Both the position numbers and the translations under genes were made by a program. 64,000 bases of DNA, from contig JYNZ01000006.1 of the NCBI GenBank assembly GCA_001567355.1, forward strand, positions 18,109 through 82,108, read 5' to 3'. This DNA is from a candidate division WS6 bacterium OLB20 (GTDB taxonomy: Bacteria; Patescibacteriota; Dojkabacteria; B142; OLB20). Positions 13,023-39,147 of the stretch are shown in pieces; position 1 is the stretch's first letter; each line of letters opens with the position of its first letter. The notes beneath the pieces were generated by a model. That model was not told the origin of the DNA. It was given only the letters and a program-made list of their open reading frames with translations, and ran no database searches.

Positions 13023-13058
13023 GATGCTTGCTAAGTATACCCGCTAATCAGGTGCCGA

Positions 13059-21505: not shown

Positions 21506-21659
21506 CAACAAAACCTCTGCGTGGAACTGAAAAACAAACGTAACAGCCAACCATTCACTGCAGGTTAAGTTTGTACCCGACAATCACCGTCAGATCTACC
21601 AGAAGCAGATTATTCTTGACGGCTCGGTTATCTCGCGGCAGACAGTCCGCCCGGATCAG

Positions 21660-22010: not shown

Positions 22011-22054
22011 AGATTTTGCCGCCTGCTCCTGGTCAGTTATAATAGCCTGATTCT

Positions 22055-22840
22055 ATGAAACAGACTCTGCCAAAACTGAAACGTAATCAGATTGACCTGC
22101 TCAAAGAGCTGATACGCAGCAACCTGAAGTTGCGCTACAGTGATTCCATCCTGGGCGTGCTCTGGGTACTTATGAAGCCGCTCCTCAACTTCCTGACACT
22201 GTTTTTCGTCTTCGGGGCGTTCCGTCAGGGCTTTTCTGATGATAATTTTGCTGCGCGCCTGATGGTTGGACTGATCGTGTATACGTATTTTCAGGAGGGT
22301 ATAACCATCGGTATGAACTCTCTGATCAACATGAGCAACATCATTCTCAAGGTAAACTTCCCGCGCAATCTCGCCGTTCTTGGATCTCTGCTTGTCTCGC
22401 TGGTTAATTTTTTTATCAACCTCCTGATCATTCTTGTCCTGACGCTGACGATCAGTTTTGTTCCCGATCCGGTCGGGACTGTGTACTTTTTTGCCATCAT
22501 GTTTGTCCTGTTTATCTTTATGTACAGTGTGTCACTGATCAGCTCAATACTCGTGATTCGGATCAGGGACCTTCAGAATATTGTGCCGGTGATGTTTCAG
22601 CTCCTGTTCTGGGGATCAGCGATCTTTTACGACATTGATGAGCTTGATGGAACGATCGGTGATATTGTCAGGGCCAACCCCATTGCGATTATTATTGATG
22701 CCTGCAGAAACGCGGTTGTTGACGGTCAGATTACCTATCTGCCGCAGTTTCTGGCATTGATTGCGATTACGCTTGTCATGTTTGTACTCGCGCGTATCTA
22801 CTTCTCTCATCAGGTAAAACTTGTTGCAGAACACATCTAA
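22055..22840 (+). CDS. wzm: ABC-2 type polysaccharide export permease (Wzm/TagG-like)
   Basis: 6-TM ABC-2 pattern, 'LKLRYSDSILGVLWVLMKPLL'. Stop is adjacent to the ATG of the following ATPase. Confidence 0.85.
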   Translation: MKQTLPKLKRNQIDLLKELIRSNLKLRYSDSILGVLWVLMKPLLNFLTLFFVFGAFRQGFSDDNFAARLMVGLIVYTYFQEGITIGMNSLINMSNIILKVNFPRNLAVLGSLLVSLVNFFINLLIILVLTLTISFVPDPVGTVYFFAIMFVLFIFMYSVSLISSILVIRIRDLQNIVPVMFQLLFWGSAIFYDIDELDGTIGDIVRANPIAIIIDACRNAVVDGQITYLPQFLALIAITLVMFVLARIYFSHQVKLVAEHI

Positions 22841-24205
22841 ATGAATACACCGATAATCGAAGTTAACAATCTGACCAAGTACTTCAGTATTCCGCACGAA
22901 CGGCGCGATACGTTGAAGAGTGTTGTAATCAATCCCTTCAAACGCATTAAGAAGGAGACCTTCAGAGCGCTCGAAAATGTCAGTTTTACGATCAACAAGG
23001 GTGAGTTTGTCGGCCTTATCGGTCGTAACGGAAGCGGAAAAAGCACGCTGCTGCAGGTACTTGCCGGTATCTATGCTCCGAGTTCAGGCACCGCGGACGT
23101 GAACGGTACAGTCATCCCGTTTCTTCAGCTGGGCGTAGGCTTTAATGACGAACTGTCGGGTCGCGAGAATGTCTTTCTCAACGGAACAATCCTGGGCATG
23201 ACGCGCGAGTATCTTGAAAAACGCTATGAAGACATTGTCGACTTCGCCGAGATCGGTGACTTTATGGATCTGCAGCTGAAAAACTATTCCAGCGGAATGC
23301 GGATACGTCTTGCGCTGGCGATTGCGGTTCAGGCTCATGCGGACATCTATCTGCTGGACGAGGTGCTGTCTGTCGGCGATGATGCGTTCCGCCAGAAGAG
23401 TCTGGCAAAAATGCAGGAATTTCTCCGTAATGGAGCCACGGTTATTTATGTGTCGCACGGGATGGATACGATCAGACAGATGTGCAGCAGGGTGCTCCTT
23501 CTTGAGGACGGCAAGCTGACATTTGACGGTGATGTGGATGAAGGTCTGACACGCTATCAGCTCTCGTATCTCAATAACAGGCAGGATTCGTCAAAACGGT
23601 TTGGCAAAGCACCTGACGAGCGGGTGATAGATTTCGTTAATCCCTACCGCTCCTCATACGGTGAGGTAAAACTGACGGATGTGAGTCTTAACGGACAGAG
23701 CGACCAGAACACGTTTCACCTTGCTACAGACCAGGAGTACACAATGAGCTTTGAGCTGGAACTTGTCTCTGAAGAGCTGCAGGATCCATGGGTCGGACTG
23801 AGCGCAACCCGGGTGCAGAATCCGGAACTTGATATTTACTATGTCGTAAAGCCTCATGTGCTCGAGGATATAAAAAAACTGAAGAAAGGTGAGAGGCTGA
23901 CGCTTACGTTTAAGGATCGCATGCCGCTAAATCCAGGTGAATATGTCTTCAGGCTGCGAATGGGATCACACGTCGGAGCAGAAGAACGTCAGAAGCACAA
24001 CGCCATGGTTGAAGCCAAGGGACTTAAAAATTATGACCGTTCGAACATGATCTTTCAGCAGGCGTTCATCATCAAAGTAGGACTGTCTGATACTGAACAG
24101 AACGCAGCAGAAAAACGTCCGCGTCAGGGTATGCTGTCCAATAGCGGTACCGTGACTGTTGAACCTGAGGCTGTTGTTTTACAGGCAGTGAATGTTGTAC
24201 TATAA
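22841..24205 (+). CDS. wzt: ABC polysaccharide export ATP-binding protein (Wzt/TagH-like) with extra ~200-aa C-terminal domain
   Basis: Walker A 'GRNGSGKST', signature 'YSSGMRIRLALA', Walker B 'IYLLDEVLSVGDD'. The C-terminal extension is consistent with a substrate-recognition domain. Confidence 0.85.
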   Translation: MNTPIIEVNNLTKYFSIPHERRDTLKSVVINPFKRIKKETFRALENVSFTINKGEFVGLIGRNGSGKSTLLQVLAGIYAPSSGTADVNGTVIPFLQLGVGFNDELSGRENVFLNGTILGMTREYLEKRYEDIVDFAEIGDFMDLQLKNYSSGMRIRLALAIAVQAHADIYLLDEVLSVGDDAFRQKSLAKMQEFLRNGATVIYVSHGMDTIRQMCSRVLLLEDGKLTFDGDVDEGLTRYQLSYLNNRQDSSKRFGKAPDERVIDFVNPYRSSYGEVKLTDVSLNGQSDQNTFHLATDQEYTMSFELELVSEELQDPWVGLSATRVQNPELDIYYVVKPHVLEDIKKLKKGERLTLTFKDRMPLNPGEYVFRLRMGSHVGAEERQKHNAMVEAKGLKNYDRSNMIFQQAFIIKVGLSDTEQNAAEKRPRQGMLSNSGTVTVEPEAVVLQAVNVVL

Positions 24206-24238
24206 TCCCGTAATTCTACTAAGTTACTAGACAATGTC

Positions 24239-25387
24239 ATGAACGAGCCACACGGCGGTAAACTTATCAACCGGATCATCCCGAAAGAGGAGCTTGATCT
24301 GGATAATATCGATCTTGAACTCACACTCGACAGCGACCAGGTGAGTGAGGTGAAAAATATTGCGACTGGTATCTACAGCCCCCTCACGGGATACATGAAT
24401 CAGGATGATCTGGAAAGTGTGATTGCAAAGTCACGACTTGCTGACGGGACACCCTGGACCATCCCGGTGTTTCTCCCGCTGAGCAAGGCAGATTTTGACA
24501 AGGTCAAGCCCGGCTCGCAGATTCTGCTCAAACGCACTGAAGGTGACAGTGATGTCCCGTTCGCTGTTCTGATTGTGTCCAGCACCTTCACGTATGACCA
24601 GGAGGAGTACGTTCAGAGTGTCTATGGCACAAAAGATAGCGACCATCCGGGAGTTGCGATGGTAAAAAGCAGGGAACCCCGTGCCGCAGGAGGAGACATC
24701 TGGGTATTCGGCGAACTGCCCCGGCTGCATGACCAGTATGACATGACACCCGAAGAGACACGTGCACTGTTTGCCAGCAAAGGCTGGAAGACCATCACCG
24801 GTTTTCAGACCCGCAACGCCGCTCACCGGGCGCATGAATTTATCCAGAAACTCTGTCTCGAGTTTGTAGACGGGTTGTTCGTCAATCCGATCATCGGAAA
24901 AAAGAAATCGGGCGACTTCAAGGACGAGGTCATCCTCGCAGTATACAGTATGCTCATCCGCGACTTCTATCCCGATAACTCGACTGCTCTGGGTATTTAC
25001 ACCTCGCGTATGAACTACGCCGGTCCCAAAGAGGCGATCTTTCATGCGATTGCCCGTAAAAACTTTGGCTGTACACACTTCATTGTTGGAAGGGATCATG
25101 CGGGAGTAGGAAATTACTATGACAAGCTTGCCTCTCACAGAATCTTTGACGAATTCGAGGATCTGGGAATAACACCGATGCGTGTAAGTAACGCATTTTT
25201 TGATAAAAAGTCGGACATGTACACAACCCAGAAGACATCACCGTTTGGACCCGAGCACTGGATTGCACCAAGCGGAACCGAGGTTAGGCGTCTTATCAAG
25301 GAAAAGGATTATGACGGGCTGTTCTACATTCTCCGCAAGGAAGTGCTTGACGAGATTTTGAAATTCGACAATCCTTTTGTAGAATAA
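24239..25387 (+). CDS. sat: Sulfate adenylyltransferase (ATP sulfurylase)
   Basis: 'PHGGKLI', 'QTRNAAHRAHE', 'GRDHAGVG'. Confidence 0.9.
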   Translation: MNEPHGGKLINRIIPKEELDLDNIDLELTLDSDQVSEVKNIATGIYSPLTGYMNQDDLESVIAKSRLADGTPWTIPVFLPLSKADFDKVKPGSQILLKRTEGDSDVPFAVLIVSSTFTYDQEEYVQSVYGTKDSDHPGVAMVKSREPRAAGGDIWVFGELPRLHDQYDMTPEETRALFASKGWKTITGFQTRNAAHRAHEFIQKLCLEFVDGLFVNPIIGKKKSGDFKDEVILAVYSMLIRDFYPDNSTALGIYTSRMNYAGPKEAIFHAIARKNFGCTHFIVGRDHAGVGNYYDKLASHRIFDEFEDLGITPMRVSNAFFDKKSDMYTTQKTSPFGPEHWIAPSGTEVRRLIKEKDYDGLFYILRKEVLDEILKFDNPFVE

Positions 25388-25410
25388 ACGTTCATTTTTC
25401 AACTATCAGC

Positions 25411-25956
25411 ATGAAAGTAAAAAACTCGTTTTGCATGTGGTTTACCGGCCTCCCGTCATCCGGTAAAACGACAACAGCTGCAGCACTCAGGCAGCGTCTG
25501 TACGATGAAGGGGTAACCGTGATCCATCTCGATGGTGACGTCGTGCGCAAGGGACTTAACTCTGATCTCGGACTTTCCGAGAAGGACCGTGAAGAAAACA
25601 ACCGCCGTATCATCCATGTCAGTGAGATCGTAGTCAGTGGGGGTGTCCCTGTCTTAAGTTCTTTTATTTCGCCGTTCAAAAAGACGCGTGATTTCGCCAA
25701 AGAGATCATCCCCAATTATATCGAAGTGTACGTCAGTACTCCGGTTGAAGTCTGTATGGAGCGTGATGTTAAGGGACTCTATGCCAAAGCTAAAAAGGGC
25801 GAGATAACCGGAATGACCGGACTGGACGCACCGTACGAAGTCCCCGAGTCGCCGGAGATTGTGCTGGAAACAACAGAGCACTCGCTGAAGGACAATATCG
25901 ACTCCATCGTGCGTTATCTGACAGAGAACGACTATCTGGAGGAGACTGACAGGTAG
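25411..25956 (+). CDS. cysC: Adenylyl-sulfate kinase (APS kinase)
   Basis: 'CMWFTGLPSSGKTT' P-loop, 'SFISPF', 181 aa. Confidence 0.9.
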   Translation: MKVKNSFCMWFTGLPSSGKTTTAAALRQRLYDEGVTVIHLDGDVVRKGLNSDLGLSEKDREENNRRIIHVSEIVVSGGVPVLSSFISPFKKTRDFAKEIIPNYIEVYVSTPVEVCMERDVKGLYAKAKKGEITGMTGLDAPYEVPESPEIVLETTEHSLKDNIDSIVRYLTENDYLEETDR

Positions 25957-26049
25957 CGACCGAATGCTCCTGGTTACAGTGTAACCTGCGGGTTTGCCAT
26001 ACGGACACCCTCTGGTACAATCATATGTACCTGAAACCTGAAGTGTCGC

Positions 26050-26946
26050 ATGAAGAAAATACGTGAGCTTATCCCGGCGCTGTCCCCAAAAGACATCGTA
26101 TTGTTTGGTGTGGGCCGCAGCGGAACAACCTGGCTGGGACAGCTGCTGGCGAGTGCCGGACTTGAATATGTGTTTGAACCCGAAGCCTACTGGAACTTTC
26201 TCCCGCACGAAGAAACCCGCGACCGCAAGCGCTACCCGATGCCGCATCACTACCTGCGCGCAGGTCAGAAGACCCCCTACGATCACTTCTTCACAAAGGC
26301 ATTACGTGGAGAGTACAAGAACGAAGAAACAGTTCGAGCCAATCCCGGAGCAAAGCGCAAGGTAATCAAGGTTATCAGGATGAACCTCATGATCCCCTGG
26401 ATTCTTGAACGGGTGAATGTCCAGCCTGTGTATCTGATGCGTGATCCGATGGCCACAATCGCGTCACAGGTTTCATGCGACTTCGAGACAACTGTCCCGC
26501 GTCTAACCAGCTATTTTTATCAGGATGAGCTGTTTGAGGACCACCTCGAGCCGTTTCGTGACCTTATAGAACAGGCAGATTCAAGCAAAGGCAGAACATC
26601 TTACATTGAGTACCTGACCATTCTCTGGTGTGTTCAGACTTACGTAGCCAGACGACAGGGGGTATTTGATACTGTTCATACCATCAGGTACAGAATGCTG
26701 CTGCTTCAGCCGTATAAGCTGCTCTGGGATATTGCAAACAGATTTTCGCTCGACTTCAATTTTGAGGCTCTGGATCGTGAGATTGCGAAAAAATCATTTA
26801 CCACACACTCGCTCGACGAGAATCACGATCCCCTGAATAACTGGCGGAATGTGTTTTCTGATGACGAAGTAAAGCTGATTGTAGATATCATTAAGGTATT
26901 TGGACTTGCCGAATACATCGGATCAGATGACCTGAAGCAACAGTAA
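26050..26946 (+). CDS. PAPS-dependent sulfotransferase
   Basis: 5'-PSB 'VGRSGTTWLG' and 3'-PB 'YLMRDPMATIAS' motifs. Confidence 0.75.
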   Translation: MKKIRELIPALSPKDIVLFGVGRSGTTWLGQLLASAGLEYVFEPEAYWNFLPHEETRDRKRYPMPHHYLRAGQKTPYDHFFTKALRGEYKNEETVRANPGAKRKVIKVIRMNLMIPWILERVNVQPVYLMRDPMATIASQVSCDFETTVPRLTSYFYQDELFEDHLEPFRDLIEQADSSKGRTSYIEYLTILWCVQTYVARRQGVFDTVHTIRYRMLLLQPYKLLWDIANRFSLDFNFEALDREIAKKSFTTHSLDENHDPLNNWRNVFSDDEVKLIVDIIKVFGLAEYIGSDDLKQQ

Positions 26947-26995
26947 AGCTTTGCCTGTGTATCTGCTATAATTCCCCAAATACTACAAAATCGCT

Positions 26996-28150
26996 ATGAA
27001 GCAAGCACAACCGGCGCTGCCTCCTGTTTTCATTATCGGTGCGGAACGTTCGGGAACAACACTGCTTCGTCTGATGCTCAATGCCCACCCTGACCTTGCA
27101 ATACCCCCGGAGTCTCTGTTCGTTGATGAGCTGTACAGGACGTTTTCCGGTAAGGATCTGACCCGACAAGACATTCCGGTTATTGTTGATGCCATGTTTG
27201 CAGACCTCAAATTCCCGGACTGGGGGCTGGACCGTGCTGAGGTTACAGAAGCGCTGGGACAGCTTTCGACACTTGATCTCAGCTCTGTAGCAGCGGTACC
27301 GTACCGGCTCTACGCGAAGAGGAACAAAGCGAAATTCTGGGGTGACAAGAACCCGTATTATTCCCTCAGGACGGACATGCTGCGTGAGCTGTTCCCTGAT
27401 GCATTGTTTGTTCATCTCAAACGTGATGGCAGGGATAATGTGATCTCGCTGCTTGAGGTAAACTGGGACTTCGGCCCGAAGTCAGTGGCTGATGCGACTA
27501 TCCGCTGGAGAGACTATATTGTGGCTGCCCACAACGCTGCGCAGGAGCATCCTGACAGCTTCATAGAGCTTTCCTATGAGGATCTTGTCTCTCAACCTGA
27601 AGCAGAGATCAAGCGCATCTGTAAGTTCCTCGGACTCGGATTTGATCCGGCTATGCTGGAATTTCATAAAGAGAACGAGGGAGGAAAACTCATTCCCGAC
27701 AGTCAGAAACGCTTTCAGGAGAGTACATTTAAGCCGGTAAACACATCTCGGCTTGGCAGAGGGCTCAGTAAAATGTCTGCATCTGATGTGTTCACTTTCC
27801 AGGCGCTGTCTGTGGATACGCTTCTGGCAAACGGATATGAGTTTCTCGATCCTGTGACAAGAAAACCTGCAGATGCTGCAGCAAACTATGCGCAGTATCG
27901 GACTGCCGGACTGGTGCTCGAGATGGAATCAGAGCTTAAGCGTCAGCTTGCCGATATGCTTGACGAGAGAACCGAGCAGATGCGTCAGGAAAAAGAGATT
28001 GCCGTAAAACGTCAGAACGAATTTATCACAAAAGAGCTTGAACGCATGCACAATCTCATGAAGGATTATGTAGCGGAACGTACCAGCTTTAAACATAAAA
28101 TTGATTACGCACTATCGCGACTTATCCCATGGCGAAGAAAACGCAGATAA
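26996..28150 (+). CDS. PAPS-dependent sulfotransferase (second) with C-terminal coiled-coil tail
   Basis: 5'-PSB 'GAERSGTTLL', 3'-PB 'LKRDGRDNVIS'. C-terminal 'ELKRQLADMLDERTEQMRQEKEIAVKRQNEF'. Confidence 0.75.
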   Translation: MKQAQPALPPVFIIGAERSGTTLLRLMLNAHPDLAIPPESLFVDELYRTFSGKDLTRQDIPVIVDAMFADLKFPDWGLDRAEVTEALGQLSTLDLSSVAAVPYRLYAKRNKAKFWGDKNPYYSLRTDMLRELFPDALFVHLKRDGRDNVISLLEVNWDFGPKSVADATIRWRDYIVAAHNAAQEHPDSFIELSYEDLVSQPEAEIKRICKFLGLGFDPAMLEFHKENEGGKLIPDSQKRFQESTFKPVNTSRLGRGLSKMSASDVFTFQALSVDTLLANGYEFLDPVTRKPADAAANYAQYRTAGLVLEMESELKRQLADMLDERTEQMRQEKEIAVKRQNEFITKELERMHNLMKDYVAERTSFKHKIDYALSRLIPWRRKRR

Positions 28151-28953
28151 ATTTCAGTGTCGTCATCCCGTATTACAATATGGGAGCATATGTCGACGAA
28201 GCGATTGCAGCTGTCGACGCACAGACTCTGGATGGAGTCGAACTGATCATCGTCAATGACGGCTCGACAGAACCCGAGTCTCTTGCAGTGCTTGATCGTA
28301 TCCGTCGTGAACGCACTGATATCAAAATTATCGACCAGCAAAACAAAAAACTCCCCGGCGCCCGCAATACAGGTGTAAAAGAAGCCTCAGGGCGATATGT
28401 AGCCTGCCTTGATGCGGACGATTCATGGGATCCGGAGTATCTGAAGAAGGCATTTGAGGTCTACGAACGCGATACACAGAACATGATTGCAATAGTCACA
28501 AGCTGGGTGCAGTTTTTTGGTGAGCGCAATGATATCTGGCAGGTTCCTGATTTTGATCTCCCGCAGATGTTCATTGCCAACCCGCTGCAGAGTTCAAGCA
28601 CATTCCGCAGGTCTGTCTGGCAGGAGCTCGGAGGGTTTGATGAGACCATGGTGCACGGATATGAGGACTGGGATTTCTGGATGAGAGCTGTAGCAAAGGG
28701 GTACGAATGGCGTTCCATACCTGAGACGCTGATCAGATATCGGAGCAGGTCGGATTCAATGGTGGTTGATTCTGATAAACGGCGCTACGAACTGTACGAG
28801 TACATTCTCACTAAAAACAGTAAAATGCTGGCGGAATCCGCTGTGCCAGTACTGGTGCAGGCACTCAGGAGGTATGATGATTTACACCGGCGGTATAATG
28901 ATGCGAAGGGCCGGTCACTGGTCTCGCGTATTGCCAATCTTATAAAGCCATAA
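28129..28953 (+). CDS. Family 2 glycosyltransferase
   Basis: 'FSVVIPYYN', 'LIIVNDGSTEP', 'ACLDADD'. Confidence 0.8.
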   Translation: MAKKTQINFSVVIPYYNMGAYVDEAIAAVDAQTLDGVELIIVNDGSTEPESLAVLDRIRRERTDIKIIDQQNKKLPGARNTGVKEASGRYVACLDADDSWDPEYLKKAFEVYERDTQNMIAIVTSWVQFFGERNDIWQVPDFDLPQMFIANPLQSSSTFRRSVWQELGGFDETMVHGYEDWDFWMRAVAKGYEWRSIPETLIRYRSRSDSMVVDSDKRRYELYEYILTKNSKMLAESAVPVLVQALRRYDDLHRRYNDAKGRSLVSRIANLIKP

Positions 28954-28958
28954 CAGTT

Positions 28959-31900
28959 ATGAAAAAGGCCAAGACAACCGGACGTATCGGCTGGCTGATC
29001 GACTTTCCGATCAAACGGTCCGGCGGTCACAAGACATTTATTGATTATGCCAACGCCCTGATAGAACATGGCTTTGAGGTTGATCTCTATGTCCGTCAGG
29101 AGGGCAGTCACTCCGCTGCCGAGCTGTTGGACATTATTGCCGACTACCTGGTCCCCACCACTGCAAACGTCATTCCCGGCTGGAATGTGACCGGACGGTA
29201 CGACATGCTGATTGCGACCTGGTTCAAGAATGCGCAGATTGTAGCTGACTACCCGTTTGCAGCGCACAAGCTCTACTTCGTTCAGGACTATGACCCGTAT
29301 CTGCAGATGATGGGTGACGATTATATTCTTGCGGAGCATTCATACAGTCTGGGACTGCCTTCGTTTACGATGGGCAGATGGCTGGGCCATAAACTGCAGA
29401 GCGAGTTTGATGCACAGGTAATTCCGTCGTTTCTCGGTGCTGATCTGGAAACCTATTCGGATCTAGGACAGACTCGTGAACATGCGGTCTGTATTCTGTT
29501 TCAACCCGAAAAAGCACGCCGGCTTGCCGGACTGGCTGTAAAAACCATGGAGACTATCCGCAGGGTACGACCTGATCTGACGGTCTATTCATACGGGTCA
29601 TGGGTTGATCCTAATATTGAAGGAGTTGAACATCTGGGACTGTTAGAACTTAACGAGCTGAACGCGCTTTACAACCGATGCAGGGCGGGTATCGGATTCA
29701 GTCCGACAAACCCGTCACGTACACCGTTCGAGATGATGGCAGCAGGTCTTCCGGTTGTCGAGCTTTACCGTGATAACAACCTGTTTGACATGCCTGAGAA
29801 GGGTGTTGTTCTCGCGGATGCGGATCCGATTGATGTCGCAGCTGCTGTCGTCCGCCTGATTGATGATGAAGCATTCTGGTTTACGCACCATCAGGGTGGC
29901 AAGGAGTTTATGCAGACCAGATCTCTGTCCACTGCCACAAAGGAATTTGTAACAGCGGTCAGTGCGCAGATAGCTGGAAAGAAGCCGGGCGCAAAGACGC
30001 TCAAACAATCATATACCCTGCAACCGTTTACCGCAGAGAGCGACTTTCTGGTTAAAGACCGTGTCATGAGTGATTACCGCAGCGAGGTAGAAAAAGCTGC
30101 AGTACTTGAACGTTCCGGGCTGGACAGTTTTCTCGAACGCAGACGCAGATTTGAGACTCTGTTCAAGCCGCTGATCAAGCTTGCAAAAATAAGTATCAGA
30201 GCACTTCAGATCTCTGTTGCAACCGTCTATCTGGCGATCCGTGATCTGACAGCCGGTATCGCGGGTTTCATTGCGGCCAGGGTATCTGCAGCGTGGCGCA
30301 CTGCCCGGACACAGTTTCAGACCGCAGTTGCGTTTCAGCGGTCATGGAAGCTAGTGAGTTTTGACATTTTTGACACATTACTCAGGCGCGTCTGTCATCC
30401 GGAGGTATCAAATATAAAACCGCGCTTCTGATCTATCTTCGTTTCTATGAGCATCTCCGTGAGATGAGCGTTGCAGGGATATACTGGGAACGACGCAGAA
30501 TCGAGGACAGTCTCGGACGCCTCAGCTCTGCAGCCGGTAAAGATCATGAGTACGTTCTGCAGGAGGTGTTGGAACAGCTGCTGAGAGCACTTCTGCCTGA
30601 TACGGGAACAGACTTCGCGGCTGAGGCGGACCGCTTCACTGACCTTGAGATCGAACATGAGCAGCTAGTCACATATCCCGATTCGCGGGCCTTGCGGCTG
30701 CTCGGTAAGGTAAAGGCGGAGACGTGTATTCTGCTGTCAGACTTCTATATGACTTCACAGCAGCTCGCGAGGATTGTCCAGAAACACATTGATTCTGATC
30801 TTTACAATACACTGATCACATCTGCAGATTCGCTCAGAAATAAAGTAAGCGGCGAAGCGTTCCGGCAGGTGATGGATACGTATAAAGTTAAACCGCACGA
30901 GTATCTGCATATCGGCGACAGTCTGCCTGCTGATATCGAGGGAGCGGCGAAGGCAGGTGTACGCTCACTCAGATTCAGCAATGAGGGACCTGACCGGCGA
31001 AAACACATTCTGGGGGATAAGTTTAATAAACGTATCAATCGTGAGTTTGCCTACAGAGACGAATTTGCCCGCGCACTTGCTACAGTTAAACCGTCAAAAC
31101 CATTGAGCAGTGAGCAGCGCAGGCTGTATGACGCCGGCGTCAGGTATGCACCGCTGTTTTATTTTTACGTACAGTCAACGATCGAGACTGCACTCAGATA
31201 CGGCATTGACGCGGTCTACTACTTTACCCGCGAGGGAGTCTTCTTTAAAAACGTACATCACGAAATACAGAAGAACAATCCACTGGGTCTGGAGCTTCCG
31301 GAGGCGCGTCTGCTCGAAGTCAGCAGAGTAGCAACGTTTGGTGCTTCAGTCACAGAGGTCAGTACAAAAGAATTGATGCGGATCTGGAACCTGTATAAGC
31401 AGCAGTCATGGAAGGGGTTATTTAAATCACTTGATGTGCCTGTTGCAGATTATAAGGAACACTTTGCCAGACATCTGATTGACCCGGATGAAGTAATCGA
31501 GATCGCCCGTCACGAAAAAAGCCTTACTCTGCTCAAGGACAAGGCGTTTATTACACAGCTTCAGTCGGCACTGTCAGAAAAAGCACGCCTGCTTAAGGTA
31601 TATCTGACAAGTAAAGGTATTGATACCAGCGCAGATGGACGGCTGCTGATCAGTGACATCGGCTGGCGCGGGTCGATCCAGGACAACCTCTCGTATCTGA
31701 TGCCGCAGAAAGAGATCTTCGGATCATATCTCGGCCTGCTGCCGCTGCTTAATCCACAGCCTCTGCAAGTGTTTAAAGCTGCATATGGTCCAAACTACAT
31801 GACAGAAAAGGGCAGAATGTGGGAGATGCTGACCGGTATTACCTTTCTTGAACTGATTACCAACACCGATACCGGCAGCGCGCTGGGTTACCGTGAGCAT

Positions 31901-32392
31901 GACGGGAAGATTACCGTACTGAAAAAAGACCTGCCCGAGGAAAACGACGTGTACCGCACATTTACGACATACTTCCAGCAGGGTGTGCTGGAGGCTGTTC
32001 CTGCAATAGCTCAGGTTGTCAGTGCTTTCGGGATCTCGAGTCTGGAGGCTCGACCATACGCGCTGGAACTTACAGAAGCAATGATGCTGCGCCCCGAACG
32101 TATACTGACAAGAGCCTACTTCAGCCTGGTTCACAATGACACCTTTGGAGATGCACGAGAACTGGATATGAAAAAACTTTCAGGACTGCCGTTGTGGCAG
32201 ATGCTGCTGGCACCTCTTGTACCGGCCGTGTTCAGGTCCGTTATGCACAAAGCTGACAGATCAATGTGGCATAACGGCTTTTTTATTTATAATGATCCGA
32301 CAGGTCTGTTTAACAGGTACATTCTGCTGCGCAAACAGATCCGTCGCAAACTTACTGCTTTGCGCATCAAGGTCTCTACATACCGGGGCTGA
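28959..32392 (+). pseudogene. Large multidomain protein (GT4 glycosyltransferase + HAD-like phosphatase + unknown C-terminal domain) split by 1-nt frameshift (ORFs 28959..30431 and 30464..32392)
   Basis: GT4 'FSPTNPSRTPFEMMAAGLPVVE'. HAD motif I 'FDIFDTLL' sits at the end of ORF1, and HAD motifs II-IV ('ILLSDFYMTS', 'LHIGDSLPADIEGAAKAG') sit at the start of ORF2. ORF2's frame is open upstream to 30374. Adding one A to the A4 run at 30416-30419 fuses them. Confidence 0.6.
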
Positions 32393-32424
32393 TCGCAGGC
32401 ATTATATGCTAAGATTTCTGTACC

Positions 32425-33399
32425 ATGAAGATCACCGTAATAGTAAATACGCTTAACCGTCCCGAGTCACTTGCTCTGTGCCTTGAATCTCTCCGCAAAC
32501 AGACATACAAGGATTTTGAAGTTGTGGTCGTCGATCAGAGCCGCAACAGACGAAGCAAGGCAGTCTGCAAACCGTATAATCTCAAGTATTACCGTATTCG
32601 TAAACGGAACAATCTTTCTGTCTCGCGTAATTACGGTATCAACATGGCAGCAGGAGATGTGCTTGCATTCATCGATGATGATGCACAGGCGCGAGAGGAT
32701 TGGATAGAACGTATCGCTGCAGCTTTCAGCTCCGAAGAGGCACCTGATCTGATCGCCGGACGGGTAATTGACGTATCGGATCCCGAAAATCCCGTCACGC
32801 AGTTTCAGAATGGAATAGTGTCATCATTCGGTTACACAGAGGATATCCGTCCATCTGACGAGCGCCGCTACGGCAAAGGTCATGCAGGCTGGTATCTGCG
32901 ACCCATGGGGGCAAACATGATTCTTCGCAAGCAGGCCGCTGTCGCGGCTGGCGGTTTTGACGAGTTTTACGAATACATCCATGACGAGACCGACATTGCC
33001 GTCAGGTTGATAAAAAACGGCGGCACTGCTGTCTACGATGACCAGCTGATTGTAGAACACAATCCGGCACTTGGAAGAAACCGAAAAAAGCGTGGCGGCA
33101 CCAACTGGTTTGCACTTGCCAAAAACAATCTCTACTTTGCACTCAAAAACGGAACCGGTCCTGCACCGCTTAAGATACTGCGCGCGCTCTGGCGTGTGCT
33201 TGGCGGCAGGGGGCCTTACGCAACACTTCTGCAGATGTTTGTCCACCGCAGGATCTGGCTTGTGGCGTTTGTGTTTAATGTACTCAAGGTTACTGCCGGT
33301 ATTGCAAAAGGATTTAATGGCGGCCTGCTGAAACGAAGACGTACAAGAACATTTGGCGAGCCCACAGAATATGTGTTATTCGCAAAACGTCATGAGTAG
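32425..33399 (+). CDS. Family 2 glycosyltransferase
   Basis: 'KITVIVNTLNRPESL', 'AFIDDDA'. Confidence 0.8.
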   Translation: MKITVIVNTLNRPESLALCLESLRKQTYKDFEVVVVDQSRNRRSKAVCKPYNLKYYRIRKRNNLSVSRNYGINMAAGDVLAFIDDDAQAREDWIERIAAAFSSEEAPDLIAGRVIDVSDPENPVTQFQNGIVSSFGYTEDIRPSDERRYGKGHAGWYLRPMGANMILRKQAAVAAGGFDEFYEYIHDETDIAVRLIKNGGTAVYDDQLIVEHNPALGRNRKKRGGTNWFALAKNNLYFALKNGTGPAPLKILRALWRVLGGRGPYATLLQMFVHRRIWLVAFVFNVLKVTAGIAKGFNGGLLKRRRTRTFGEPTEYVLFAKRHE

Positions 33400-33745: not shown

Positions 33746-35953
33746 ATGCATATTCAGATAGTCGGCCCGGCAGTATCGGAGTATTCCCTTGCCCGGGTAA
33801 ACAGACTCCTTGCCCGGCACCTTGCTTTGATTCCGGATACAAAGGTAACACTATACGCACCGGAGCTGCTTGCGGGCAGGGATGTACGGCCGGCCGATCT
33901 TGATCGCTATCCCTGGCTCCGTGAGATGTACGTGACAGAACAGGGACGTCCCGATGTTCAGATCTTCTGCGCGTTTCCTAAAAGCACCGGGGATTCACTG
34001 GGCTTGCAGGCTCTTACTGCACCGCACAGGATGATCTATCTTGCCTGGGAGGAAACGGGGTTTCCGTCAGAGTGGGTGGACGAGATCAACCGTCACATCA
34101 CTGTTGTGCTGGCTCCCAGCGTTCATGTCGCCCGGGTGCTTGAGCGGGCAGGTGTTAACCGTCCTGTCAGCGTGATACCGCTGGGCATTGAAAAAGTTAC
34201 TCCCGATAAGGCCTATCAGACAGTAACGGATGCAGAATGCACATTCCTCCATATCAGTTCGGGTCATGCCCGCAAGGGGCTTGATGTACTGCTGGATGCC
34301 TATGAGCAGGCGTTTACCGGCGGGGACAACACTCTGCTTGTACTTAAGCTGTTTCCAAACCCCAACCTTGACCTTGATGCGATACGGTCACGGTTTGCAA
34401 CGACGGGTAAGCCCCGTCTGCAACTGATTGATGATCCTGAACTCACAGACAGTCAGATCGCCGCACTGTATCAGCAGGCAGACTGCGTTGTTCTGCCTAC
34501 ACGTGCTGAGGGCTTCGGTTTGCCTATGGCAGAGGCAATGCAGACCGGTGCTCTGCTGATTACAACAGGATACAGCGGCCAGATGGATTTCTGTGATGAG
34601 CGTTCGGCTCTGCTTCTTCCGTACAAACTGGTCCCGGCAGTAGAATCACATCACGGGCTGCCCGGATCAATGTGGGCACAACCGGATACAGATGCTCTGG
34701 CAAAGCTTATGAAACGGGTTTACAAAAACCCTGATGGAGCAGAATTCTCTGCCATGCGCGAGCAGGCAAAAAAGAACGTTGCAGATCTGACATGGGAGAA
34801 TACAGCTTCCGCCGTTGCTGCTGTTGCCGCCCAGCTGCCGCGTCTGTCGTCTCTGTCGGTTAAGCGTGCTGCTGTTGTGAGTCCGATTCATACACCTGGC
34901 GGAGTAGCGGAGTATACCCGTGAGCTCTACCAGCCGTTACGCAGTGTTTTTTCGGAACTTCGTTTCTTTGCAGATATTGCAGTCCCGGTGACTGAAGATC
35001 CTGCTGTTGACCGGTGCTGGAACGGCAGAGACACGCAAACACTGACTGACCGACTCAAAGAGTATGCGCCTGATATCCTGCATATCCAGTACCACACCGA
35101 CTTCTTTACACCCGAGCAGCTGGGTATGCTGCTGGCTGAGTCCGCCGGTCATACCGATATGTATGTGACACTGCATATTGTGCCGGAGGGACTTCCCGTA
35201 GCAGCACTGGAGCAGTGCAGAACAGTCTGGGTTCATTCTGTCGCAGATCAGTCCAGGATGCATGCGGCTGGACTTGAAAACGTGAGGATTGCACCACACG
35301 GGATTCCTGATGCCCTGCCGCGACCCGCTGATCAGCTCAGGGACAGGCTTGGAATCCCGCATCAGCCGGTTGTGGCGACCCACGGCCTGCTGCATGACCG
35401 TAAAGGTGTGCTGGAGCTGGTCGACAGTCTGCCAATGCTGCTGAATACATTCCCCGATATGCTCTTGCTGCTGGTTAGTGCTGTCAGCTCTGCAAACAGT
35501 ACATCGCAGGGTGTAAGTGCTCAATTACATCACAAAATCAAAGACCTGCAGCTGGAGCACCATGTCGTTCATATCTCTGACTTCCTGTCGTTCCCCGAAG
35601 TTGTAACGATGCTGCAGCTTGCTGACCTGATTGTACTCCCGTACCACGAGCTTGGAGAGGGTACAAGCGGTGCTGCCCGGACTGCCATGGCTGCAGTAAG
35701 ACCAATGGTGACGAGCGATATCGGAATGTTCGCGGAAGTACCTGCGCACAGAATCTCAGACAGCACGCCGGTTTCTATAGCAGGAGCGGTTGCTGAGGTT
35801 CTAAATGACAAATCATTGCTTGATGATCTGCGCAGGCAGGTCCGTGACAAACTGGAGCTGCAGGCGTGGAGACGTGTGAGTTACGAGTACGCAATCTCGC
35901 TGTCCGAGAGTTCTGCGTCATCATCTGCAACTTTAAATACCCAGACCTTGTAG
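33746..35953 (+). CDS. Two-module GT4 glycosyltransferase (tandem GT-B domains, WbdA-like)
   Basis: Two GT4 C-terminal cores: 'VVLPTRAEGFGLPMAEAMQTGALLITT' and 'IVLPYHELGEGTSGAARTAMAAVRPMVTSD'; 735 aa. Confidence 0.8.
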   Translation: MHIQIVGPAVSEYSLARVNRLLARHLALIPDTKVTLYAPELLAGRDVRPADLDRYPWLREMYVTEQGRPDVQIFCAFPKSTGDSLGLQALTAPHRMIYLAWEETGFPSEWVDEINRHITVVLAPSVHVARVLERAGVNRPVSVIPLGIEKVTPDKAYQTVTDAECTFLHISSGHARKGLDVLLDAYEQAFTGGDNTLLVLKLFPNPNLDLDAIRSRFATTGKPRLQLIDDPELTDSQIAALYQQADCVVLPTRAEGFGLPMAEAMQTGALLITTGYSGQMDFCDERSALLLPYKLVPAVESHHGLPGSMWAQPDTDALAKLMKRVYKNPDGAEFSAMREQAKKNVADLTWENTASAVAAVAAQLPRLSSLSVKRAAVVSPIHTPGGVAEYTRELYQPLRSVFSELRFFADIAVPVTEDPAVDRCWNGRDTQTLTDRLKEYAPDILHIQYHTDFFTPEQLGMLLAESAGHTDMYVTLHIVPEGLPVAALEQCRTVWVHSVADQSRMHAAGLENVRIAPHGIPDALPRPADQLRDRLGIPHQPVVATHGLLHDRKGVLELVDSLPMLLNTFPDMLLLLVSAVSSANSTSQGVSAQLHHKIKDLQLEHHVVHISDFLSFPEVVTMLQLADLIVLPYHELGEGTSGAARTAMAAVRPMVTSDIGMFAEVPAHRISDSTPVSIAGAVAEVLNDKSLLDDLRRQVRDKLELQAWRRVSYEYAISLSESSASSSATLNTQTL

Positions 35954-37466: not shown

Positions 37467-38154
37467 GGTTCAAATCGTAAGCGGATTACCTGAAGAATAA
37501 TATCCAGTCCGTCCTTCATGTTAATTTTTTTCCCTTCTTTTTTATCGCGGGGAAAGTAGGCAACTTCAAATTCGCGGAATGACCACTTCTTCCGGAGTGC
37601 CTTGACCACCCATTCTATCTCAAGCCCGAAGCGTTCGGCTTTGATGTGCAGTGTTTTAAACTTGTTCAGCTTACAGAGCTTGTACGCGCAGAGAGGATCG
37701 GCAATGCTGCGGCCATAGAGGACTTTTAAAAGAAGTGTAGTGGTAAATTTGCCCAGCCTTGTAACAGTATTCACCTTTTCCTTCAGAACCCGCTTGCCGA
37801 AGATGATGTCGACCGGTTCGCGTTCGATCAGCTCAAGCATTCTAAGAATATCATCCGGATCCAGTTCTGAATCTGCATCTTCCACGATCATATACTCTCC
37901 TTTAGCGTGGGATGCACCATTCTGAACGCTGCGCCTTTTCCTTTATTGTGTGCATGCAGTATTAGCTTGAGTCGAAGCTCAGGTTGCAGTTTTTTCAGAA
38001 TCTCACGGCTGCCATCGGTGGAGTAGTCGTCGATAACGATAATTTCCTTATCGACAGGCAGAGCATGGATGCGCCTGACAGCGGTTTCAACTGTTTTACG
38101 TTCATTCCAGACCGGCATAATGACGGTAAGTTTAGGCCGGCGGATCTCAGGCAT
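37463..38154 (-). pseudogene. gtrB: Polyprenyl-phosphate glycosyltransferase (GT2, GtrB/DPM1-like) split by 1-nt frameshift (ORFs 37888..38208 and 37463..37891)
   Basis: 'LTVIMPVWNE', 'IIVIDDYSTDGS', 'HNKGKGAAFR' then a frame change. The alternative frame reads '...NGASHAKGEYMIVEDADSELDP', matching the GT2 consensus. The deletion is in a T/A run near 37905-37912. Confidence 0.7.
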
Positions 38155-39147
38155 AGTCGGCATCGGTTCTTTTCTGTTCCCATTCCCAGGCGCTGGAAAT
38201 GATGTCATCTAATGTATATCTGGCTTCCCAGCCCATTGCCTCTTTGATCCTGGAGGGATTAGCAACAAGTCTGGCAGAGTCACCTTCGCGTCTGGGGGCT
38301 GTATCATATTCCACTTTTTTACCCGTGACTTTCTCGGTCGTTTTGATTACATCAAGAATGCTCGACCCGGTACCGTCCCGACATTAAAAGCGCTAAAACC
38401 TTTATGGTGCTGCAGATAGTCGATGCATGCAGCATGTGCATCAGCCAGATCCATGACATGGATGTAGTCTCTGAGCGCGGTGCCGTCCGGCGTGTCATAG
38501 TCTGTCCCGAAAACTTTGAGTCTGAAGTCATCAGCAAGCAGGCCATGCAGCAGTCTTGGTATCAGATGTGTCTCGGGGCGGTGACGTTCTCCCATGACAC
38601 CTTTGTATGAGCCTGCGGGATTAAAATAGCGCAGTGCCACAACGTTAATACCTGCAAACTTTGTGTAGGACTCCAGAATCTGCTCTGTGATGTGTTTTGT
38701 CAGTGCGTAGGGGTTTTCGGGGTGCAGCGGGTCGTCCTCTTTAATCGGTACACGTTCCGGTGTTCCGTAGACTGCGGCAGAACTGCTGAAGACGAAGTTT
38801 TTCACCCCGTTTGTAATGAGGATATCAAACAGATGCTGACTTCCGACTACATTGTTGTTTACAAACTGTACAGGTTCCTGTGTGGAAATACCGACCTCTA
38901 TTGATGCGGCAAAGTGAATAACTGCATCAAATGTCCGGCCTGCAAGTTTTGTTCTGACCTCAGCCAGGGATTTAAGTTCTGTCTGCAGCAGCTCAAATTC
39001 GCCGCCGTGTGTTCTGACAGCATTGAGGATCTCCTCCTTGTCTTTTTCGAGGTGGTCGAGAATGGTGACTGTGTGTCCCTGCTGCAACAGGACGAGGGCA
39101 GTATGAGACCCGATGTAGCCCGCACCACCGGTGATAAGAATATGCAT
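38147..39147 (-). pseudogene. galE: UDP-glucose 4-epimerase with 1-nt frameshift near 38370-38378
   Basis: 'MHILITGGAGYIGSH', 'YxxxK' region. The ORF stops at '...FNVGTVPGRAFLM*', but the -1 frame continues 'GTGSSILDVIKTTEKVTGKKVEYDTAPRREGDSARLVANPSRIKEAMGWEARYTLDDIISSAWEWEQ' (canonical GalE C-terminus) down to a stop at 38147. Confidence 0.8.

Follow-up and report, generated by a model that had tools for sequence, protein, structure and literature searches.

Chain-capping terminators of surface-glycan pathways, such as WbdD and WbbB, have as their hallmark a coiled-coil enzyme together with a binding module on Wzt (PMC11231755). The WbdD/Wzt-CBM systems of E. coli O9a and K. pneumoniae O3 make ABC-transporter-dependent O-antigens with a capped chain (PMC11231755). 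WbbB (K. pneumoniae O12) and ORF7 (O4) are β-Kdo terminators with coiled-coil rulers; the terminator is placed at the coiled coil's distal end and export relies on the Wzt CBM (PMC11231755). Sulfation enters in other systems. The capsule clusters of the marine Gammaproteobacteria Vibrio sp. KMM 8419 and Cobetia marina are ABC-transporter-dependent and combine PAPS genes with several sulfotransferases (STs), and the Vibrio capsule is sulfated within the repeat unit (PMC11641403). NodH and NoeE with NodPQ are Sulfotransfer_3-type enzymes, supplied with PAPS by dedicated genes, that sulfate carbohydrate (PMC11625862). The locus described here shares features with all of these.

The window, a 64,000-nucleotide stretch of DNA from the uncultured, ultra-small CPR bacterium OLB20 (Dojkabacteria, candidate division WS6), contains sat, cysC and two sulfotransferase genes (ST1 and ST2) directly 3′ of a Wzm/Wzt exporter and directly 5′ of about seven glycosyltransferase genes (Table 1). 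It is well supported that these four genes serve as the sulfation module of a Dojkabacteria surface-glycan pathway that depends on an ABC transporter. All four are intact ORFs on the plus strand, each with a family match, and encode 382, 181, 298 and 384 aa; the gaps are 23 nt (sat–cysC), 93 nt (cysC–ST1) and 49 nt (ST1–ST2). The sequence-only reading had given the coordinates and lengths of these ORFs exactly, and its identification of Sat, CysC and two sulfotransferases is borne out by the family matches. The row of four genes it described is not stand-alone, being part of a Wzm/Wzt(CBD) glycan export cluster. Sat and CysC are indeed separate ORFs, as it had noted, which is an ordinary arrangement. 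Sat matches Pfam ATP-sulfurylase (1.8e-72) and PUA_2 (1.9e-41) and scores 424.7 bits against NCBIfam NF003166 (cut-off 387). Its translation carries GFQTRNAAHRAH and VGRDHAG, and the QTRN, HRAH and GRDHAG motifs are all found; it falls in a clade of 50–71% identical proteins, several of them named Candidatus Dojkabacteria. CysC scores 210 bits against TIGR00455 (cut-off 138.7) and its P-loop is GLPSSGKTT.

Table 1. Features of the sulfation and glycan export cluster (positions in the window)
Feature	Position	Strand	Description and basis
Wzm	22055..22840	+	Wzm-type ABC-2 permease, polysaccharide exporter; Pfam ABC2_membrane 1.2e-13
Wzt	22841..24205	+	Wzt-type ATPase; Pfam ABC_tran 8e-23 and Wzt_C
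sat	24239..25387	+	Homo-oligomeric-type ATP sulfurylase (sulfate + ATP -> APS); Pfam PUA_2 and ATP-sulfurylase
cysC	25411..25956	+	APS kinase (APS + ATP -> PAPS); Pfam APS_kinase 5.4e-56
ST1	26050..26946	+	Tail-less PAPS-type sulfotransferase, divergent subfamily; Pfam Sulfotransfer_3 3.5e-8
ST2, whole gene	26996..28150	+	384 aa
ST2, catalytic domain	26996..27844	+	Residues 1–283; TPST-like Sulfotransfer_3 fold
ST2, C-terminal stalk	27875..28147	+	Single 90-residue helix, residues 294–383; AF2 secondary structure
GT2 glycosyltransferase	28129..28953	+	Start overlaps ST2 end by 22 nt; Pfam Glycos_transf_2 1.4e-28
WsaF_C-type glycosyltransferase	28959..32392	+	With HAD-like domain and ~450-aa C-terminal domain; Pfam
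GT2 glycosyltransferase	32425..33399	+	Pfam Glycos_transf_2 2e-26; 68% identical to L165 counterpart
Dual-GT4-module protein	33746..35953	+	Two Glycos_transf_1/GT4 stretches; Pfam
GtrA-like membrane protein	35881-36399	-	Pfam GtrA_DPMS_TM 6e-21
GT4	36399-37466	-	Pfam Glycos_transf_1 4e-26
DPM1-like GT2	37463-37891 and 37888-38208	-	Two split ORFs; ORF translations
GalE	38147..39147	-	UDP-glucose 4-epimerase in two split ORFs (266 aa, and a 55-aa C-terminal remnant); TIGR01179

The best NCBIfam models for the permease are Wzm/RfbD and KpsM, both scoring under their cut-offs; Wzm lies directly 5′ of Wzt in every Dojkabacteria locus examined. Wzt has a nucleotide-binding domain (NBD, approximately residues 1–250) and a C-terminal carbohydrate-binding domain (CBD, about 23603–24202), for which the Wzt_C match is barely over the Pfam threshold (31.1 bits, gathering score 30.4). 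Full-length Wzt of Aquifex aeolicus (8dku/7k2t) heads the PDB sequence matches (E 1.3e-57), the alignment spanning query residues 9–384 and thus running through the CBD; taken by itself, the C-terminal part has a weak match to the A. aeolicus CBD (E 0.06). Across eight Dojkabacteria loci the NBD is 51–76% identical and the C-terminal domain 18–34%. A hypervariable C-terminal domain on a conserved NBD is what would be expected of a module whose task is to read a terminal structure that differs from strain to strain.

The order Wzm–Wzt(C domain)–Sat–CysC is kept in eight or nine related Dojkabacteria loci. The P0023 contig, L164/L165 (the complete 1.17-Mb genome CP129475.1), L166 and L169 share a longer order, IleRS–FNR–Lgt–Fmt–x–Wzm–Wzt(+C domain)–Sat–CysC, which L167, L168, L170 and L171 show in part. 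The sulfotransferases behind this conserved core vary, from one to four and of different families; in L168, L170 and L171 the core is present and no ST was found within the stretch seen.

Downstream of the sulfotransferases lie seven glycosyltransferase-type genes, GtrA, GalE and ManC. The WsaF_C-type gene (Pfam WsaF_C 2.6e-9, Hydrolase 3e-10) is split by a frame change into ORFs 28959–30431 and 30464–32392, which align end to end with residues 4–462 and 483–1103 of a single 1141-aa L165 protein; the L169 equivalent has 1143 aa. The dual-GT4 protein shares 43% identity along its whole length with a 725-aa L165 protein and resembles, by architecture alone, dual-module polymerases such as WbdA. 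The GtrA–GT4–GT2 trio is also found in L164/L165, and GalE scores 291 bits against TIGR01179 galE (cut-off 262). Several of these neighbouring genes are frameshift-split in the OLB20 assembly, which may reflect partial decay of the pathway or an error-prone assembly; GC content is even across the window.

Structure prediction followed by Foldseek, the check proposed in the sequence-only reading, gave a sulfotransferase fold for both ST models. ST2 (Pfam Sulfotransfer_3 5.6e-41; AF2 pLDDT 93.7) has TPST1/2 as its top PDB matches by sequence, followed by the CurM/OLS sulfotransferase domains (TPST1 1.3e-17, CurM 6.8e-10); Foldseek also returns TPST1/2 (about 1e-13) as well as the mycobacterial Stf1 and Stf9. 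The ST2 sequence has 100% identity to a protein of candidate division WS6 bacterium OLB20. Besides the fold, ST2 shares with the TPSTs the 5′-PSB loop GxxRSGTT, a Glu about 21 residues further on, a Lys and the 3′-PB Arg...Ser. R18, S19, G20, T21, T22, E39, K118, R143 and S151 are all present and are invariant or near-invariant across 94 homologues; a Trp found in 90 of the 94 is missing from ST2. The match of ST1 to Sulfotransfer_3 is weak (34.4 bits, gathering score 27). Its AF2 model is nevertheless confident (pLDDT 90.1), and all 50 of its 50 best Foldseek matches in the PDB are sulfotransferases. ST1 belongs to a very large subfamily distinct from that of ST2 (9,501 profile matches) and has an extra helical insertion of roughly 40 residues relative to ST2. 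R23, G25, E43, K107, R131 and S139 are present and invariant or near-invariant across 87 homologues. Orthologues of ST1 occur in L002 (62%) and L169 (STa, 37%) and are absent from the P0023, L165 and L166 loci; ST1 is an accessory gene, found in only some related loci.

ST1 and ST2 do not match significantly by pairwise BLASTP (E 0.17), whereas profile–profile comparison aligns them with 99% probability (E 1.6e-18, 16% identity) and superposes the PSB loop, a Glu, a Lys and the 3′-PB Arg/Ser. The sequence-only reading, in which the two share only PAPS-binding motifs, was essentially right; its term paralogs therefore holds at the superfamily level and not below it. It had also looked to a conserved catalytic Lys, His and Ser. 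Lys (ST2 K118/ST1 K107) and Ser (S151/S139) are conserved in both enzymes, as are two Arg (R18/R23 and R143/R131). A catalytic His is not expected, since both are TPST-like with an invariant Glu at the TPST catalytic-base position (ST2 E39, ST1 E43). No PAPS-binding or catalytic-type residue is lost in either ST.

Far from being a curiosity, the tail is the feature of ST2 that tells us most. The coiled coil of about 90 aa described earlier is, in the AF2 monomer model, a continuous helix over residues 294–383, its pLDDT staying above 90 as far as about residue 360; clear heptads are confined to residues ~330–379 (a/d hydrophobic occupancy 75–88%, z = 4.4 against shuffles). The proximal third has poor heptad character, residues 305–330 forming a strongly charged helix rich in E/R/K. 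The protein ends in nine residues, LIPWRRKRR, and this terminal segment is basic yet weakly amphipathic (hydrophobic moment 0.34).

Exactly one tailed ST, with a C-terminal heptad-periodic helix and a basic end, is encoded in each of the six Dojkabacteria loci that encode STs (6/6). Three ST families unrelated to one another carry these tails, which are 60–105 aa long. In the window the tailed enzyme is ST2, and in P0023 it is a 370-aa ST with a ~90-aa tail; the tailed STs of L165, L166, L167, L169 and P0023 are not orthologues of ST2. A second family, with 26–32% mutual identity and no BLASTP match to ST2 at E <= 1e-3 in an all-against-all comparison, is made up of the L166 (327 aa), L167 (332 aa) and L169 (STd, 363 aa) enzymes. 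The tailed ST of L165 is a Sulfotransfer_2 (PF03567) enzyme of 297 aa whose tail is helical, basic and 60 aa long. Heptad periodicity is clear (z = 4.4–9.5) save in L165 (1.7), and the last 15 residues carry a net charge of +3 to +7. ST1 and L169 STa, STb and STc have no tail; the best heptad windows of tail-less STs are weak (z 1.4, 0.5) or lie within the catalytic domain. Saccharibacteria and Dojkabacteria also have close, tail-less homologues of ST2 (P0025, P0029, L001, L006, L007); these occur in GT2–ST–methyltransferase contexts, and no Wzm/Wzt was found near them. The ST tail thus tracks the exporter cluster. We note that CBD similarity does not clearly follow the type of tailed ST.

Pairing of the predicted coiled-coil tail of ST2 with the Wzt binding module makes ST2 a probable terminator, like WbdD and WbbB. 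Our preferred reading, which we hold tentatively, is PAPS-dependent sulfation of an ABC-exported glycan in which ST2 is a sulfate-capping terminator and ST1 an accessory decorator. Sat and CysC would turn sulfate and ATP into PAPS in the cytoplasm. The downstream glycosyltransferases (two GT2s, the WsaF-like multidomain enzyme, the dual-GT4 protein and GT4) would build the polymer on the membrane's cytoplasmic face, with a polyprenyl-phosphate as the presumed carrier, using sugar nucleotides from GalE and ManC. We infer that a glycan is the sulfate acceptor. ST1, soluble-type and tail-less, would transfer sulfate from PAPS to one glycan position as an accessory decoration. The modelled tail of ST2 may bind the membrane and oligomerise, its basic C-terminus keeping the enzyme near the membrane and its ~90-residue helix holding the catalytic domain up to ~12–13 nm away if fully extended. 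When a chain had grown far enough to reach ST2, the enzyme would most likely sulfate that chain's non-reducing terminal sugar, and in this way each finished chain would be capped. The terminal sulfate would stop extension and create the epitope that the Wzt CBD must bind before export by Wzm/Wzt.

ST2 would thus be a sulfate-adding functional analogue of WbdD/WbbB-type terminators. It has in common with WbdD an N-terminal catalytic domain that is not a glycosyltransferase, a long helical/coiled-coil spacer and a C-terminus suited to membrane association; both systems also have a C-terminal carbohydrate-binding domain on the exporter ATPase and a dual-GT4-module protein (WbdA in the known system) encoded nearby. 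The differences are substantial. ST2 is a PAPS sulfotransferase and WbdD a kinase/methyltransferase, with no sequence relationship; the ST2 helix is shorter, its host is a CPR bacterium not known to make LPS, and capping is predicted, unlike that by WbdD. WbbB and ORF7 cap with Kdo by means of glycosyltransferase folds, whereas in Dojkabacteria sulfate is the predicted cap, and one or other of several interchangeable ST families would add it.

It is possible, although in our view less likely, that both STs decorate in-chain positions, the ST2 tail only tethering and/or dimerising the enzyme at the membrane with its lipid-linked substrate; chain length and export would be set otherwise and the Wzt C-terminal domain would read the repeat unit or another cap. 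Across the wider ST2 family long helical tails are rare and most homologues, with basic tails (median 45 aa), have the look of plain membrane-tethered enzymes. Outside Dojkabacteria, family members adjoin Wzt both with and without a C-terminal domain (without in L011, L018, L019 and L029) and mostly have only the ~45-aa basic tail, so membrane tethering alone could explain the tails. Known sulfated capsules with PAPS genes, several STs and an ABC cluster are moreover sulfated within the repeat unit (PMC11641403). These marine clusters differ from the present locus in having CysNDC, KpsMT-type export and sulfate on a repeat-unit rhamnose; neither a coiled-coil ST nor a CBD-bearing Wzt has been described in them, and they belong to large genomes in which the PAPS genes are second copies. 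In-chain decoration leaves unexplained both the heptad-periodic tails borne independently by three unrelated families and the single tailed ST per locus beside tail-less STs. It also leaves the CBD-bearing Wzt without a terminator, as no methyltransferase, kinase or Kdo-transferase candidate was found in the cluster. The earlier suggestion of two sulfation positions or substrates is reasonable, given the different subfamilies and the ST1 insertion, but the one-tailed-ST pattern across unrelated families points to different roles, capping versus decoration; overall, that interpretation is partly supported.

Action on a lipid or small glycolipid, as for rhizobial NodH/NoeE (Nod factors) or mycobacterial Stf0 (sulfolipids), we consider unlikely. 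The Stf1 and Stf9 Foldseek matches point that way, as does a weak NCBIfam NoeE match of ST2 (1.1e-10), but its 40.8 bits are far under the 500-bit cut-off. The genes sit, with conserved synteny, between a polysaccharide exporter and the glycosyltransferases, and the cluster has no lipid-synthesis genes; NodH/NoeE differ in acting on a lipo-chitooligosaccharide and in having neither an exporter CBD nor a coiled-coil tail. That ST2 is a TPST/RaxST-type protein-tyrosine sulfotransferase for a secreted or surface protein is very unlikely, even though TPST1 and TPST2 are its closest solved structures and the catalytic Glu, Lys and Arg equivalents align. Identity to the TPSTs is only 22–27% (about 25%), and with the polyketide domains of CurM and OLS next-best the similarity is at the subfamily-fold level. 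TPSTs, which are type II membrane proteins of the Golgi, have an anchor and stem at the N-terminus and act on protein tyrosines, whereas ST2 has its stalk at the C-terminus and lies in a glycan cluster; 161 homologue neighbourhoods show glycan genes and not peptide precursors or type I secretion, and the exporter here is of the Wzm/Wzt ABC-2 type. Sulfate assimilation, too, begins with Sat and CysC in many bacteria, but an assimilatory role with incidental ST adjacency is hardly credible, as the window's ORFs yielded no cysH, sulfite reductase or sulfate-transporter gene and sat and cysC lie directly 3′ of Wzt in 8 of 9 Dojkabacteria loci, with STs next in five. The recurring core synteny therefore ties the PAPS genes to the exporter rather than to a cysteine pathway.

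The four co-directional open reading frames of the sat–cysC–sulfotransferase row were recovered by ORF calling with exactly the positions and sizes claimed in the sequence-only reading, and their gene-identity matches could not be chance. Sat is matched over its full length by NCBIfam NF003166 (sulfate adenylyltransferase) at 424.7 bits, against a curated cut-off of 387, and its translation shows the QTRN, HRAH (HxxH) and GRDHAG active-site motifs; we assign it from sequence as an ATP sulfurylase of the Sat type. CysC scores 210.2 bits with TIGR00455 against a curated cut-off of 138.7 and is likewise assigned as an APS kinase. No sulfate-reduction genes and no sulfate transporter were found in the cluster among the ORFs of the window. 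Sat and CysC are unlikely to serve assimilation, a reading rejected from context.

Features of the window, with positions, strands and matches
Feature	Position	Strand	Product (aa)	Match or remark
Isoleucyl-tRNA synthetase	14016-18134	-	1372
Fmt	within 20348-22010	+	385	over-long; ~315-325 aa in relatives
Remnant ORF after Fmt	21660-22010	+	116	231-233 aa in relatives, no Pfam match
Wzm	22055-22840			ABC-2 permease
Wzt	22841-24205		454	Wzt_C, 31.1 bits (gathering score 30.4)
Sat	24239-25387	+	382	Pfam ATP-sulfurylase (PF01747) 1.8e-72, PUA_2
CysC	25411-25956	+	181	APS_kinase 5.4e-56; P-loop GLPSSGKTT
ST1	26050-26946	+	298	weak Pfam match, 3.5e-8
ST1 residue 215	26692-26694	+		Arg
ST2	26996-28150	+	384	Sulfotransfer_3 5.6e-41, clear match
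ST2 residue 256	27761-27763	+		Gly
WsaF/HAD, first ORF	28959-30431
WsaF/HAD, second ORF	30464-32392			frame differs from first ORF
Small ORF	33353-33679	+	108	just upstream of dual-GT4 gene
DPM1-like GT2	37463-38208	-		in two ORFs
GalE	38147-39147	-	266 + 55	in two ORFs
ATP-citrate-lyase alpha-like	39159-40969	-		two ORFs overlapping ~200 nt
ATP-citrate-lyase-like genes	39159-42249	-

The identity of ST1 and ST2, the two sulfotransferase genes that follow cysC, was settled by structure prediction, the check proposed in the sequence-only reading, which gave a sulfotransferase fold for both. The AF2 models have a pLDDT of 90.1 (ST1) and 93.7 (ST2), and the best 50 Foldseek matches of each in the PDB are all sulfotransferases; ST1 has no sequence match in the PDB. 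For the ST2 model the nearest structures are tyrosylprotein sulfotransferases (TPST) and CurM/OLS sulfotransferase domains. ST1 and ST2 are not significantly similar in pairwise BLASTP (E 0.17); their family profiles do align, with a probability of 99% and an identity of 16%, and show an insertion of about 40 residues in ST1 relative to ST2. A word-indexed homology search gave only six matches for ST1, which made it appear an orphan. An exhaustive profile search overturned this: its 9,501 matches among 1.8 billion representatives place ST1 in a separate, large subfamily.

Residue conservation was counted over 94 ST2-family and 87 ST1-family homologues. The 5′-phosphosulfate-binding loop reads GAERSGTT in ST2 (R18–T22) and GVGRSGTT in ST1 (R23–T27); the residues of both spans are invariant or near-invariant, the arginine being kept in 92/94 and 87/87 homologues respectively. 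The glutamate about 20 residues past the loop (E39 in ST2, E43 in ST1) is invariant in both families, as are the arginine (R143, R131) and the serine (S151, S139) of the 3′-phosphate motif. A lysine (K118, K107) is kept in all 94 ST2-family members and in 86 of the 87 of the ST1 family. When aligned with TPST1, E39 and K118 of ST2 fall on the glutamate of ‘GEET’ and the lysine of ‘NKDP’, which we take from structure work on TPST2 to be the catalytic base (E99) and the transition-state lysine (K158); E43 and K107 of ST1 align with the same two positions. A catalytic histidine is thus not expected. The refuting condition built on a Lys/His/Ser set needs rewording: the lysine and serine are present, and an invariant glutamate aligns with the presumed base of TPST. 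Two near-invariant columns deviate in the window. Residue 256 of ST2 is tryptophan in 90/94 homologues and cysteine in the orthologue from the related locus L002; residue 215 of ST1 is glutamate in 85/87 and also arginine in the orthologue from P0122. Since these orthologues deviate at the same positions, both residues are traits of the lineage and not errors.

ST2 carries a C-terminal tail that had been described as a coiled coil of about 90 residues. In the AF2 monomer model, residues 294–383 form a single unbroken helix of 90 residues, in agreement with the length. Between about residues 305 and 330 Glu, Arg and Lys abound and the heptad pattern is poor. Between about 330 and 379, hydrophobic residues fill 75–88% of the a/d positions and the 3.5-residue periodicity stands 4.4 sd over shuffles. 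A coiled coil is plausible for the distal half of the modelled tail; the remainder is more safely called a long helical stalk. The protein ends in LIPWRRKRR, and its last 15 residues have a net charge of +5. The usual C-terminal extension in the wider ST2 family is basic and some 45 residues long, and long helical tails are rare. Analogous heptad-periodic helical tails are found on non-orthologous sulfotransferases of five related loci.

A polysaccharide ABC exporter pair, made up of a Wzm-type ABC-2 permease and a Wzt ATPase, directly precedes sat. The C-terminal 200 residues of Wzt pass the Pfam Wzt_C threshold only barely; the whole protein aligns with the full-length Aquifex aeolicus O-antigen transporter ATPase, through the binding domain to residue 384. 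By sequence Wzt carries a C-terminal carbohydrate-binding module, one feature of the capped-glycan ABC-transporter pathway, and Wzt_C was also called in six related loci. On the downstream side the first gene overlaps the end of ST2 by 22 nt. The genes there comprise two GT2 genes, a WsaF_C-type enzyme fused to a HAD-like domain and a dual-GT4 protein, followed by a GtrA-like protein, a GT4, a DPM1-like GT2 and GalE, with ManC slightly further on. No methyltransferase or kinase was found in the cluster, and the sulfotransferases are its sole modifying enzymes. Candidate division WS6 bacterium OLB20 (Dojkabacteria, CPR) has a protein that matches ST2 at 100% identity. GC content is flat over the whole window; this, with synteny kept in the lineage, led us to reject a horizontal-transfer island. 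Scans of the window for tRNAs and Rfam families were empty. Scanning 21400-36500 for promoters and terminators gave the numbers expected from shuffling (15 against 14.2 and 12 against 12.8), which are uninformative on operon structure. We note that the 108-aa ORF ahead of the dual-GT4 gene may encode a small partner protein that is conserved; ORFs of 119–124 aa with no Pfam match occupy the equivalent position in L164/L165, L166 and L168.

Eight further loci were reached through Sat proteins 50–71% identical to that of the window; several members of this clade carry a Dojkabacteria label. The order IleRS, ferredoxin-reductase-like, Lgt, Fmt, small protein, Wzm, Wzt (with C-terminal extension), Sat, CysC is full in L164/L165 (from a complete 1.17-Mb genome), L166 and L169, and partial in the others. 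What follows CysC varies. The window and L002 have ST1 then ST2; the P0023 contig has a single ST2-like enzyme whose tail is about 90 aa long; L165 has a single PF03567 Sulfotransfer_2 enzyme and L166 a single enzyme of a third family. In L169 four sulfotransferases stand in a row (11691-15384): an ST1 relative (STa, 37% identical), two oppositely oriented Sulfotransfer_1-like genes (STb, STc; about 260 aa) and a 363-aa tailed enzyme. The number of sulfotransferases in the cluster thus ranges from one to four between strains. The sulfotransferase of L167 is 9 kb away, and none lies within the stretch retrieved for L168, L170 and L171. In each of the six loci that bear sulfotransferases, exactly one carries a tail that is helical and heptad-periodic and has a basic end (60–105 residues, z up to 9.5, terminal charge +3 to +7); the co-resident ST1, STa, STb and STc have none. 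The tailed enzymes fall into three families, between which all-against-all BLASTP shows no significant similarity (E <= 1e-3). Saccharibacteria and Dojkabacteria also have close relatives of ST2 without a tail, and these sit away from transporter clusters.

In the eight loci, Wzt is 51–76% identical over its nucleotide-binding domain but only 18–34% over its C-terminal domain. Similarity of this C-terminal domain gave no clear signal when compared with the type of tailed sulfotransferase. Outside Dojkabacteria there is no strict link between the ST2 family and a Wzt bearing the carbohydrate-binding domain (CBD), as short and long Wzt both occur. The ST2 orthologues in L002 and P0023 were found through a protein index. 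A scan of genome contigs with ST2 alone found no relative, and alignment-based scans of genomes and metagenomes gave only homologues of at most 43% identity, none with the tail seen in the window; in these collections, therefore, the orthologue group is rare. A tblastn search of 163 loci with the ST2 tail and the Wzt C-terminal domain gave no match, both being too divergent.

Taken as a whole, the cluster very probably directs the synthesis of a PAPS-dependent sulfated glycan exported by Wzm/Wzt. Clusters combining PAPS genes and sulfotransferases are already known from marine Proteobacteria; we found no report of sulfotransferases in CPR or Patescibacteria in the open-access literature. The most economical reading of the two enzymes is that ST2 would cap the chain with sulfate, while ST1 would add a second, accessory sulfate. 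We infer the acceptor, the cap and the export coupling from architecture and synteny. Capped-glycan ABC-transporter systems have two hallmarks, a terminating enzyme carried on the distal tip of a coiled-coil molecular ruler and a Wzt carbohydrate-binding module that admits terminated chains only (PMC11231755). By analogy both architectural hallmarks appear to be present in the window, and we put the capping role of ST2 at just short of an even chance. ST2 would then be a functional analogue of WbdD, alike in architecture. Membership of the WbdD family itself was ruled out: that family has kinase and/or SAM-methyltransferase domains, whereas ST2 matches sulfotransferase families only (Pfam, NCBIfam).

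The main rival has the tail as merely a membrane tether or dimerisation device, with both sulfotransferases decorating internal residues. Sulfated Vibrio capsules, from clusters in which PAPS genes and sulfotransferases likewise accompany an ABC transporter, are described as decorated internally (PMC11641403), and a tether would fit the short tails and CBD-less Wzt partners outside Dojkabacteria. We consider this rival possible, though less likely than not. Tyrosylprotein sulfotransferases are structurally nearest to ST2, and match it in sequence at E ~1e-17 and 22–27% identity. These enzymes have an N-terminal type II membrane anchor, whereas the topology of ST2 is reversed: its stalk is C-terminal and no N-terminal hydrophobic segment is visible in its sequence. 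Its genomic context is one of glycan genes, in which protein-tyrosine sulfation by ST2 is unlikely. RaxST-like peptide sulfation was rejected as unlikely given the same glycan genes. Sulfation of a lipid or glycolipid is also unlikely, as the genomic context counts against it.

Should ST2-type enzymes cap with sulfate, this would be new chemistry beside the small set of experimentally established terminators, namely methyl, methyl-phosphate and beta-Kdo. We found no report of a sulfotransferase terminator in the open-access literature, a scope outside which fall the census of Mann, Kimber & Whitfield (Glycobiology 2019), which may already list sulfotransferase candidates, and the review of Whitfield et al. 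(JBC 2020). If capping is true, the loci would also amount to natural swap experiments, with three sulfotransferase families on the same kind of stalk. We tentatively suggest that sulfate could be a so far uncharacterised chain-terminating cap and export signal in ABC-transporter-dependent glycan assembly. Unrelated sulfotransferase families of Dojkabacteria would each have acquired a coiled-coil ‘ruler’ and a hypervariable Wzt binding domain as partner, and the reduced CPR genomes would retain a PAPS pathway, tied to the exporter, solely for the polymer. If ST2 is not a cap, a clear but ordinary sulfated-glycan gene cluster remains. Because the cluster is conserved and sits beside housekeeping genes, Dojkabacteria are predicted to share, as a lineage trait, a sulfated and strongly anionic polymer at the cell surface, which could mediate attachment to hosts or surfaces. 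To our knowledge, almost nothing is known of Dojkabacteria envelopes or partner attachment. A compact cluster with its own PAPS supply and exporter could also serve the engineering of sulfated polysaccharides.

Several neighbouring genes are split or fused; sat, cysC, ST1 and ST2 themselves are intact. The two adjacent WsaF/HAD ORFs correspond to one WsaF_C–HAD–unknown-domain protein of 1141–1143 aa in L165 and L169. They align with residues 4–462 and 483–1103 of the L165 protein, and HAD motif I (FDIFDTLL) sits at the extreme end of the first ORF. The split is a frameshift, by assembly error or gene decay. Together with the divided DPM1-like, GalE and ATP-citrate-lyase alpha-like genes, the over-long Fmt and the remnant behind it, the pattern suggests indel errors in assembly, although the locus may instead be partly decayed. 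The full-length version of the remnant, between Fmt and Wzm, is kept in most related Dojkabacteria loci. The remnant ORF has an HTHPD...S..D pattern resembling the JAB/MPN metalloprotease motif. In the isoleucyl-tRNA synthetase orthologues of L166, L169 and L170 (1183–1363 aa) the tRNA-synt_1 segments are interrupted by a His_Phos_1 (histidine phosphatase) domain, an unusual insertion conserved in the lineage. The ATP-citrate-lyase-like genes are unexpected for a reduced CPR genome: the pair combines Citrate_bind and an ATP-citrate synthase ATP-grasp with, in the next gene, CoA-ligase and a citrate synthase C-terminal domain.
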